Shown in pieces: positions 6,665 through 9,739 of a stretch of 10,990 nt of DNA (the stretch's first letter is position 1; every line of letters begins with the position of its first letter). The position numbers were made by a program, and so were the translations under genes. The notes beneath the pieces were generated by a model. It was given only the letters and a program-made list of their open reading frames with translations, was not told the DNA's origin and did no database searches. Location of the stretch: the IMG/VR virus record IMGVR_UViG_2617270964_000005. One strand, written 5' to 3'. The DNA is from a virus (Duplodnaviria > Heunggongvirae > Uroviricota > Caudoviricetes).

Positions 6665-6867
6665 AACCTCACTCCCAGCGGACGACGGCGACGCCGGGTT
6701 GTCCCCAGTACCGACTCCGCATCATTGATCGCCCGGTTAAGCTCATCCAGAGAAGCCGCCGTATATTCAATTCTGCGACCATCTTTCTGGACAGACACCA
6801 CCCGTTTACCGGTTAATAAATCAAGGCGCGCCTGACGCAGCGCCTGCAGTTCAGCGACTGTAACCAT
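6661..6867 (-). CDS. W: Head-tail joining / DNA stabilisation protein, lambda gpW homolog (68 aa)
   Basis: 68 aa, same length as lambda W, with the shared core LLTGKRVVSVQKDGRRIEYTAAS (lambda [22 protein letters not shown] as recalled). Sits between A and B as in lambda. Confidence 0.85.
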   Translation of the reverse strand: MVTVAELQALRQARLDLLTGKRVVSVQKDGRRIEYTAASLDELNRAINDAESVLGTTRRRRRPLGVRL

Positions 6868-8779
6868 TCACTCCTCCGGACAGCTTCGCTGCCAGTTCTT
6901 TAAGGGTTGGCCGGGTCGTCTCTTCTTCCCGGGATTTTGCCAGTACAGCCAGATCAAGCTGCCAGCGTTGCACGGACACACGTAATGCCGCGTAGGCATA
7001 CACCAGGCAGTCCAGCGCTTCGTTACGCCGCTTTTTGTTATCCCACAGCAGACGCATCTTTCCTTTTTCCCACTTCTCCACAAGCTCTTCCGCGACCAGT
7101 TGCTGCGCCTCTGTCTGCGAAAAAATCTCCGGATCATCAGGAAAACGGATGGCATACGACGTGGCTTCATCCACAGGCGTGGGATCGGCTTTCATACGGG
7201 CATAGAGAATTTCTTTTGCGGTGTCCGTCCCCACTTCACACAGATACACGCCCCGCTGATTGCGGGTTTTTGGCATGGTGATCACCGGCTTGCCATAGAC
7301 AGATGCGCCTTTTACCGGCAGCACCCGGAAAACACCGTGTTTTTTTGACCTCTGATAAACGATTTCGCCATCGATCCCCCCGATGTCCCAGCAGACACGG
7401 GAAATAGTCATTTCGGTTCCGTCTGCATGGCGGTATTTTTTGTTGATCGCCGCATCCAAACGTAACAGCGTCTCTTCCTCATCGGGACGCCCCATAATGA
7501 TGATTTTATCTACCAGAAAGGCTTCCTCTCCCGGAGCCCATCCCCAGACATACATCTCGAAACGGTTTCGCTGCGAGTCAATGCCCGCCGTCAGATAAAC
7601 CACCCGGGCAGGCACCGCCGCCGTGTAACGCACAACCTTATCCATCAGTACCTGGTGATCGAGTTTTTCGCCCACGGCCTCTTCCCAGGTCTCGCCCAGC
7701 GTGGTGTTCACAAAGGTTTTCAGGCCGTTGGGATCTTTCAGTGCATCCAGCCAGTCATAGACAATCTGTACCCAGGTGGTGAACGGACTGTACGCCGTCC
7801 AGATATGGAAAGTGATGGAACGCGGCGGCGGAATTTCATCACCCCGGGCGCTGAAAAACATCAGGCCGTCACGGGTCCACATGCCCGTGTTTTCACAGAT
7901 CCACCGCCCGTTACTCTGGTCAAGCTCAGACTGATGGATCACACAGCCATGATGCTCACAAAGGTAGAAAACACTTTCTGGTTTATTCTTCTCCCACTTA
8001 AGACCGAAAGGCGAGGCATCATCGCCAAATTTCAGATACTGCTCCTCCCCACAGTGCGGACAGGGCACATAAAAACGCATGAAGTGTGCCGACTCGTTAG
8101 CGGCTTTTTCGATCTGGCAGGAGCCTTTGATTTTAGGCGTCGAGCCGCGAATGGATTTTGGCCATACAGAGCCCTCAATACGTTTATCCCCCAGCAGGGT
8201 TGGCGAACCCTCTTTTTCAACATCCGGTTCGAACGAGGAAAGCTCGTCATAACAGACCACATCCACGGATTTTTCACGGTAGTTTTTTGCTGCCGCACCA
8301 CCCAGACACCAGAACCCCACACCGGAGGAAAAACGCTTCAGGGTGAGCGTATTATCGCGGTGTTTTCTTCCGAACCATGGAGCCAGCTCCAGCAATGCAG
8401 GAACATCCCTTATCGTTGGCTCAACATGAGATTTCATAAAATCTTCAGCAGCTGAGTCCGTGGGCTGAAAAAGAAGGCTGTTGCGTGATTTATGCTCAAT
8501 AAAATAAGCCTCCACTCCCAGCAACATCTTTGTATAACCAACACGGGCAGATTTAATCAGGTTAACCGTGCGAATCAGATCGTTGCCCATACAGTTCATG
8601 ATGCCAACCTGAAACGGCAGTGTTTCCCACCGCCCGGGGGTATAAGACGACTCTTTAGGAAGGTAATAATGTTTATTGGCCCACTGAACTGTCGTCAGTG
8701 GAACAGGAATAATGAGAGATAAAAGCCCTGTAGCTATCGCACCGGCTGCATTAGCTGCCTTCTGCGCGTCTGAAATCAT
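6851..8779 (-). CDS. A: Terminase large subunit, lambda gpA homolog (642 aa from the ATG at 8779; an upstream in-frame ATG at 8821 would give 656 aa)
   Basis: Extensive identity to lambda A as recalled ([23 protein letters not shown](T/S)[18 protein letters not shown](A/K)[92 protein letters not shown]). The 8779 start has a GGGTGG Shine-Dalgarno and gives a 29-nt overlap with Nu1, as in lambda. Confidence 0.93.
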
Positions 8780-9299
8780 CGATCCACCCGCCCACGTTTT
8801 CACCGGCCTTAGCTGCAACATTGGAGGCTTTCGCGATTTCAGTTTTCACCACATCAAGGTGTGATGGTGAAATGTCCGGATATTTACGCTGTAATGTCAA
8901 CGGCACACGCACAAGTATCCCCGAAATCTCCTGTGCCACACGTTGCAGAATGAAGGTAAACAGTTCAGTTTCCAGCACTACTCCGTCTTCACGGGCATTT
9001 TTCAGTTCCTGCGCATCTGCCTGCGCTTTTGTGAGCCGGTAGCGTTCATAGTCAATGGTGCCGGGTTGTAAATCTGACTCCGCTGCCGCACGCAAATCGT
9101 CCAGTTCTTTGCGGAGCTTTTCGTTTTCGATATCAGTTTCCCTCTGCGCATACCACTGAATTGCCATGGCAGTATCAAATACAGATTCAATGCCCTTACT
9201 ACCTTTGGAGGCGCAAGGGAGTCCCTGAGACTGCCAGCGTTCAATCGTCCGCGGGTCCACGTTGAAAATTTCGGCAAGCCTCTTTTTATTAACCTTCAT
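8751..9299 (-). CDS. nu1: Terminase small subunit, lambda gpNu1 homolog (182 aa)
   Basis: [12 protein letters not shown]...[12 protein letters not shown]...[56 protein letters not shown] aligns with lambda Nu1 as recalled (MEVNKKQLADIF...NWQEQGMP...[55 protein letters not shown]). The C-terminal 35 or so residues diverge. Confidence 0.92.
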
Positions 9300-9475
9300 G
9301 AAAACAACCCATTATCAAATACAAGGCCCGACATGAAAACGCCAGAAAAAGGCATTTTCGGACACTTTCATGTCGGACCTTTACGGATGTAATATTAAAA
9401 AAAACAAAAAGTTATATTCGAGAAGTACCGACACGATTTTCCCTGAAAAATTTTCATAAATAGTGAAAAACCGCG
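9296..9475 (-). promoter_or_regulatory. cosB-like terminase binding region containing three copies of a CATGAAA-type repeat (candidate R sites) and an AT-rich segment
   Basis: Lies between cosN and the nu1 start. CATGAAAAC occurs at 9297..9305 and 9332..9340 as direct repeats, with an inverted imperfect copy (CTTTCATGTCG) at 9365..9375. The first 45 or so bp next to cosN resemble the lambda left end as recalled. Confidence 0.5.
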
Positions 9476-9487
9476 AGGTCGCCGCCC
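9476..9487 (-). other. cosN, the 12-nt cohesive-end site (minus strand reads GGGCGGCGACCT)
   Basis: Plus strand AGGTCGCCGCCC at 9476..9487 is the exact reverse complement of the lambda 12-nt cohesive end. Flanking sequence on both sides resembles lambda as recalled (right end ...GGTCCTTTCCGG(T/C)GATCCG...GTTACG, left end CTCGCGG(G/T)TTTTC(G/A)CTATTTATGAAAATTTT). Confidence 0.85.
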
Positions 9488-9510
9488 CGTAACGGCCCGG
9501 ATCGCCGGAA

Positions 9511-9517
9511 AGGACCT
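9511..9517 (-). other. cosQ-like element (minus strand AGGTCCT versus lambda GGGTCCT as recalled)
   Basis: Position and sequence relative to cosN match the lambda cosQ region as recalled. The exact cosQ boundaries are from memory and uncertain. Confidence 0.4.
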
Positions 9518-9519
9518 GC

Positions 9520-9542
9520 AAAATGATAATGGTTATCATTTT
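9520..9542. repeat. Perfect 10-bp inverted repeat with a 3-bp spacer (AAAATGATAA tgg TTATCATTTT) immediately next to the cosQ-like element
   Basis: Read directly from the sequence. A second inverted repeat (AGTCCGGT at 9549..9556 and ACCGGACT at 9572..9579, 15-bp spacer) lies just beside it. Confidence 0.6.
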
Positions 9543-9739
9543 CAATGTAGTCCGGTTTCTTCCACCATCGCACCGGACTGGCGACTATGAGGGGACAACG
9601 CCGCGCTCCGTTAACGCGGTAAACCCCGGTGTGTATCGTTTTTGATTATCCCCGCACACTCGCGCAGAGGAGTCTCCCTGTCGGGCTGCGGTCTCTGTTA
9701 ATGAGGGAATACAGCGACGATACGGCGCATCAGCAAAAC

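Follow-up and report, generated by a model that had tools for sequence, protein, structure and literature searches.

Sequence comparisons point to a phage 21-type cosB subsite with its matched small terminase in a lambdoid element

Among the subsites that make up cosB in phage lambda, R3 is the most critical. Although cosQ and cosN do not differ between lambda and phage 21, either phage favours its own DNA over that of the other by a factor of more than 1000 in packaging (PMC4669245), a discrimination that has been attributed to base pairs 56 and 59 of the R boxes on the DNA side and to residues 20 and 24 of the small terminase subunit (TerS) on the protein side (PMC4669245; PMC9026076). The R boxes have been assigned to TerS binding by genetic and biochemical work, and the segment of the lambda R3 box contacted by TerS comprises bp 55-63 (PMC9026076). 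In the mismatched situation Glu24 of the lambda protein clashes with the G:C pair at bp 56 of the phage 21 R3 box (PMC4669245). The matched pair of TerS and cosB from phage 21 itself has also been described (PMC4669245; PMC9026076), and the divergence of these two partners between lambda and phage 21 counts as a classic example of protein and DNA specificities that co-evolve, one that has been dissected by experiment.

The locus considered here lies in a 10,990-bp stretch of DNA from a viral record in IMG/VR (hereinafter the window), whose minus strand is the coding strand of the phage genes. In the cos numbering used below bp 1 corresponds to window position 9487, such that the window coordinate equals 9488 minus the cos position. 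A megablast search of the region 9250..9620 against phage records recovered phage 21 (X02501, OL657228) at 99.6% identity from the cohesive end onward. Direct alignment showed that 237 of the 238 bases of cos bp 1-238, a span ending 50 bp inside the small-terminase gene, are the same as in phage 21 (OL657228, X02501). The single mismatch (A versus G at bp 98) falls between I1 and R2, where no site is annotated. Furthermore, R3, I1, R2, R1 and I0 of the window coincide in position and sequence with those of phage 21 (OL657228, X02501, M81255), and the head genes across the window are ~96% identical to those of this phage. Read along the minus strand, the elements follow one another in the order cosQ, cosN, I2, R3, I1, R2 (inverted), R1, I0 with the ribosome-binding site (RBS), and gene 1. 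When the cosB regions of lambda, phage 21 and phi80 are compared with it, the match is to phage 21. Judged from these sequence comparisons, the interval is almost certainly the cosB subsite of a phage 21-type cos site on a lambdoid element, and none of the evidence contradicts this identification. Sequences related to the query were found in 2083 of 5426 complete E. coli genomes, with at least 80% of the query covered in 52 of them. Given that cosQ, cosN and cosB are contiguous, the window would derive from an integrated or circular form rather than from virion ends, and its carrier is most likely an E. coli prophage. The positions of the sites (Table 1) were taken from two independent phage 21 GenBank annotations (OL657228, M81255) and mapped onto the window.

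Table 1. Elements of the cos region and the adjoining terminase genes, in window coordinates
Feature	Position	Strand	Cos bp	Basis
cosQ, packaging-termination subsite	9511..9517	minus		homology to lambda 48473-48479 and phage 21 cosQ annotation
cosN, 12-nt cohesive end GGGCGGCGACCT	9476..9487	minus		same in lambda and phage 21; annotated in OL657228
I2 segment TATGAAAATTTTTCA, between cosN and cosB	9444..9458	minus		M81255 annotation
cosB R3, putative TerS (gp1) box AATCGTGTCGGTACTT	9423..9438	minus	50-65	identical to annotated phage 21 R3
cosB I1, predicted IHF site between R3 and R2	9402..9416	minus	72/74-86	phage 21 annotation
cosB R2, putative TerS box TTTCATGTCGGACCTT, inverted relative to R3 and R1	9366..9381	plus	107-122	phage 21 annotation
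cosB R1, putative TerS box TTTCATGTCGGGCCTTG	9322..9338	minus	150-165/166	phage 21 annotation
I0, putative weak IHF-like site over the gene 1 RBS	9302..9316	minus	172-186	M81255 annotation
Gene 1 ATG	9297..9299	minus	189	start codon
Gene 1, terminase small subunit (TerS, 182 aa), winged helix-turn-helix N-terminal domain	8751..9299	minus		ORF
Gene 2, terminase large subunit (TerL)	6851..8779	minus		ORF 6851..8821; start by homology to phage 21 gene 2 (709-2637 in OL657228)

The initial annotation of this DNA had described non-lambda repeats beside a lambda-type cosN, laid out as an inverted pair plus one further copy, and this general picture is correct, the actual arrangement being R3-I1-R2(inverted)-R1. 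The repeat unit is a 16-bp box (TTTCATGTCGGnCCTT) present at R1 and R2, of which R3 constitutes a diverged third copy. The sequence CATGTCGGNCCT is exact at R1 (minus strand) and R2 (plus strand) and has two mismatches at R3 (minus strand), which a pattern search showed to hold the core TCGTGTCGG. The shorter pattern TCRTGTCGG occurs three times in the entire 10,990-bp window, each time in cosB and in the orientations minus, plus and minus, against 0.24 occurrences expected; three matches were reached in 2 of 200 shuffles. A repeat finder likewise detected a 27-nt inverted repeat with 81% complementarity, its arms lying at 9323-9349 and 9355-9381; these arms enclose the second and third repeat copies of the initial annotation. 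The R3 box has a G at bp 56 (as a G:C pair) and a G at bp 59, the 21-type state of both specificity positions. R3, the inverted R2 and R1 all share the 21 consensus, and hence the locus displays the tripartite organization typical of phage 21. A search for the IHF consensus recovered I1, whose core AAACAAAAAGTTA (plus strand, 9402..9414), adjoined by an A-tract, is a consensus match only, with one mismatch to WATCAANNNNTTR; lambda carries AAACATTAAGTTA at the corresponding position. The I0 site contains AAACAACCCATTA at 9302..9314, again with one mismatch to the IHF consensus.

Comparison with lambda shows an identical 12-nt cohesive end, as had been recognized earlier, embedded in lambda-like flanks that are identical at 36 of 45 positions on the cosQ side and 41 of 48 on the cosB side (cos bp 1-48); across bp 49-188 the identity is 63 of 140 positions in a comparison without gaps. 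The R boxes of the two phages are nevertheless positioned alike: R3 is at bp 50-65 in both, R2 at about bp 109-124 in lambda and 107-122 in the window, and R1 at about bp 151-166 in lambda and 150-166 in the window. Each box is thus within 1-2 bp of its lambda position, which contradicts the earlier suggestion of a spacing tighter than that of lambda. The R3 boxes agree at 11 of 16 positions, differing at bp 51, 52, 56, 59 and 62. In terms of the consensus, the lambda R box is CGTTTCCtTTCT and that of the window C[A/G]TGTCGGnCCT, with T replaced by G at bp 56 (T:A in lambda, G:C in the window) and C by G at bp 59. At the level of sequence, then, the window boxes are homologous variants of the lambda R boxes and not unrelated elements. 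The possibility that lambda-type R sites are hidden elsewhere in the interval, which the initial annotation had itself raised, was rejected by consensus searches allowing up to two mismatches: neither the lambda R consensus CGTTTCCNTTCT in the cos region nor boxes of the CGTTTCCtTTCT type in 9300..9500 were found at this threshold. The window R3 has three mismatches to the CGTTTCCtTTCT consensus, which in the window has just two matches at this threshold, both in coding DNA and at chance level.

The TerS protein encoded by gene 1 is 100% identical to gp1 of phage 21 over 182 aa and 52% identical to Nu1 of lambda. It matches the Pfam profile Phage_Nu1 (PF07471) with an E-value of 1.9e-81 and 271.9 bits (cut-off 30) over profile positions 1-163 of 164. 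Over residues 1-54 it does not differ from chain A of PDB 7LWR, a solved structure for which a literature search recovered no accompanying paper. The proteins of lambda and the window belong to the same fold and family (Phage_Nu1, with matches to PDB 1J9I and 6HN7), and to this extent the earlier characterization of the DNA-binding domain as lambda-like holds. However, it does not extend to the recognition helix (residues 17-24), which reads RTIERWQS, with Glu20 and Ser24, as against RTIQNWQE, with Gln20 and Glu24, in lambda. The window accordingly has the full 21 set of G at bp 56, G at bp 59, Glu20 and Ser24. As TerS and cosB are both of the phage 21 type and matched, the apparent paradox of a foreign cosB beside a lambda-like Nu1 disappears; the non-lambda cosB specificity that had been proposed was rightly perceived, yet it is the classic lambda/21 difference accompanied by its matched TerS.

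By analogy with the mechanism put forward for lambda and phage 21, IHF would introduce a bend of about 180 degrees into the DNA at I1 and a dimer of the TerS winged helix-turn-helix domain would dock across the bend; TerS might then anchor TerL, leading to accurate nicking at cosN, a packaging initiation complex and the start of packaging (PMC4669245; PMC9026076). Specificity relative to lambda would arise from the matched differences at R-box bp 56/59 and TerS residues 20/24, and a 21-specific terminase would be expected to initiate at this site and a lambda-specific one not to do so.

A pattern scan of IMG/VR for lambda-like cosQ-cosN sequences yielded at least 120 loci, for which the R3 box was cross-tabulated with the N-terminus of the downstream TerS. 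Among the matches listed, the type of R3 box tracks the TerS helix in a clean association: the lambda type, GTTTCCGTTCTT, occurs with RTIQNWQE at more than 60 loci, and the 21 type, AATC[G/A]TGTCGGTACTT, with RTIERWQS at a minimum of about 14 loci in addition to the window. N15-like forms make up another group among these listed matches. At least two further pairings of R3 box and helix are seen among the IMG/VR loci L012-L131 (e.g. L115, L049 and L008, the last being PhiR5_1), with AATCAGATCCGTTCTT accompanying RTITAWQS and AAGCATGTCAGTTCTT accompanying RTIDRWQT (the PhiR5_1 type) among the matches listed. These two may correspond to cosB packaging specificities beyond the lambda and 21 types in lambdoid prophages of E. 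coli. A conservation set was also assembled from 11 distinct 21-type or near-21-type cosB sequences, including that of the window. In the strict 21-type members the CATGTCGG cores of R1 and R2 are constant, save one base in one R2, with variation in the spacers and flanks, and the PhiR5_1-type relatives retain only CATGTCG.

These comparisons bear directly on the initial annotation's own model, in which the functional TerS sites are CATGAAAAC-type 9-mers at 9297..9305, 9332..9340 and 9365..9375 within a compact cosB. The 9-mers do exist: two exact direct copies, the only mismatch-free ones in the window, lie on the plus strand at 9297..9305 and 9332..9340, an imperfect inverted copy with 7 of 9 bases matching is found at about 9364..9375 (ACTTTCATG / CTTTCATGTCG), and a search tolerating one mismatch shows a mild excess of the pattern in the window (8 matches versus 3.3 expected). 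However, as a repeat unit they are out of register with the boxes. Written on the phage strand, the 9-mer is GTTTTCATG; its copy at 9332..9340 consists of two flanking bases and the first 7 bases of R1, the inverted copy at 9365..9375 is only the outer edge of R2, and the copy at 9297..9305, which overlaps I0, combines six leader bases with the ATG of gene 1. Two of the CATGAAAAC repeats thus represent the TTTCATG edge of an R box (R1 or R2), and the remaining one is an unrelated match over the start codon of gene 1. The model also omits R3, the site of greatest importance in lambda; R3 and I1 both lie outside the interval given in the initial annotation and were missed there. Moreover, the phage 21 annotation puts the boxes elsewhere than the 9-mers, which reach just 2 of the nine positions corresponding to the TerS-contacted segment bp 55-63 (PMC9026076). 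Some exact 9-mer direct repeat arose in 380 of 2000 (19%) dinucleotide-preserving shuffles of 9250..9500, a test that is weakened by A/T runs and does not measure the significance of the true R boxes, which rests on the TCRTGTCGG pattern count and homology; the exact 9-mer pair is thus not significant alone. In the conservation set the start-codon copy of GTTTTCATG is not intact in 7 of the 10 remaining members, which have the same or a near-identical recognition helix, and also in PhiR5_1. Absence of the repeats from close relatives with the same Nu1, which had been named as grounds for abandoning the model, is accordingly seen for the start-codon copy and not for the true R boxes. The overlap with the start codon is real, but this copy is not an R site, and its interpretation as a fourth R half-site was rejected on conservation. 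It is extremely improbable that the 9-mers are the functional sites, and no less so that, as this model would allow, the promoter-proximal copy over the nu1 start couples packaging to translation of gene 1; the comparative data largely refute the model.

The phage 21-type assignment of the R boxes must also be weighed against the potential of the R2/R1 pair to act as a nucleic acid. The segment comprising R2, the spacer and R1 (9316..9388, minus strand) is predicted to form a 26-bp hairpin of -35.5 kcal/mol (z = -9.3 versus shuffles), with complementarity running through the spacer beyond the R boxes, and it is followed by a U-rich tail that was flagged as terminator-like and lies just upstream of the gene 1 RBS. 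Comparable hairpins, with self-complementary spacers of different sequence, are present in four classes of cosB, namely the lambda, 21, PhiR5_1 and L115 types. It might be supposed from this that the inverted repeat is mainly a terminator-like or mRNA-stabilizing hairpin upstream of gene 1 and not a pair of protein sites. Yet two inverted sites for one protein would fold in this manner by construction, and quasipalindrome correction could maintain the spacer complementarity without selection. Neither the cos regions of the PhiR12 and N15 types nor the loci L040 and L060, whose R3 boxes are of the lambda type, have the hairpin. When the hairpin regions of 12 cosB sequences were aligned with MAFFT, which aligned the spacers poorly, and analysed with RNAalifold, support was confined to base pairs inside the R boxes; protein binding alone would lead one to expect covariation there, and this outcome is thus neutral as to a structural role. 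The genetic and biochemical studies cited above ascribe these boxes to TerS binding (PMC9026076). A predominantly nucleic-acid role is therefore very unlikely, although an additional role for the hairpin is possible.

A different kind of alternative accepts the phage 21-type cosB but questions whether the cos site as a whole still works. cosQ of the window reads AGGTCCT, the variant base at 9517 being a G-to-A change of the first cosQ base, as opposed to GGGTCCT in lambda, phage 21, PhiR5_1, PhiR12_1 and the nearest E. coli prophage (strain 100416), from which the window differs in 371 bp by this base alone. The first cosQ base is G in 119 and A in 1 of the IMG/VR lambda-like cos sites among the matches listed, a scan of the whole of IMG/VR for the A form in that flanking-sequence context gave one contig (L018), and natural variation of cosQ is not apparent in the literature (PMC4669245). 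The change may have arisen as a private mutation with an effect on packaging termination in the prophage and, if it impairs termination, cos may not be fully functional despite the intact cosB. Nevertheless, the head-gene ORFs in the window are all intact and cosQ is not required for initiation at cosB (PMC4669245), and it is unlikely that the prophage is partly disabled, with the cosB sites surviving as a relic in a termination-defective cos. This reading in any case concerns whether the site still works and not its identity. Also unlikely are the proposals that the R2/R1 pair and its spacer have been selected for something beyond TerS binding and, separately, that the G-to-A change defines a natural termination-defective or altered-specificity cosQ. 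Were the former true, the hairpin could act in RNA or single-stranded DNA, for instance as a terminator insulating the head operon from prophage read-through, or alternatively it could modulate translation of gene 1.

The likeness to phage 21 ends to the left of cos: from 9488..9620 and on towards 10990, on the lysis-gene side, the matches are to PhiR12-type and Stx-converting phages. Left of cosN the flank is like that of other E. coli prophages and of Stx phages and unlike that of phage 21, with which it shares 28 of 45 positions, with cosQ as GGGTCCT in phage 21 and AGGTCCT in the window. At the sequence level, a mosaic junction is thus indicated at cos or close to it. Immediately left of cosN (9488..9497, minus strand) the window has GGGCCGTTACG, lambda GACAGGTTACG and phage 21 AACAGGTTACG; the GGGCC form of this flank is common to PhiR12_1 and 6 of 120 IMG/VR loci among the matches listed, and therefore represents a natural variant of the spacer between cosQ and the left side of cosN. 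Just upstream of cosQ there is a palindrome at 9525..9543 (GAAAATGATAACCATTATC on the minus strand) with two mismatches to the 19-bp Fur box consensus GATAATGATAATCATTATC, for which 0.01 matches are expected in the window; lambda has TGATAATCATTATCA in its place. A literature search for a link between cosQ and Fur recovered nothing.

Thus, in conclusion, cosB-21 and its cognate small terminase are already known, and the main finding contains nothing new. Its significance is small beyond correct annotation, the mildly new elements being the rare cosQ variant, the recurrent R2-R1 hairpin and the further pairs of R box and helix in IMG/VR. Such an annotation has value in showing which helper phages, or terminase-hijacking phage-inducible chromosomal islands, could package the element. 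With respect to the remaining lambdoid systems, phi80 has a complex cosB with three R boxes, a cohesive end identical to that of the window and a gene 1 start at bp 190, but its R boxes are of the lambda type (CGTTTCCGTTCTT / GGAAAT / CGTTTCCTTTCT) and not of the TGTCGG type. N15 likewise possesses cohesive ends of a lambda-like system, and its TerS recognizes, through the winged helix, an R3 at approximately the same distance from cosN (PMC4669245). However, its R sequence is unrelated and its recognition helix different, and its cosB is a simple one, with a single critical R3, an additional rR2 inside the TerS gene and no IHF site, whereas the window possesses a full tripartite cosB.
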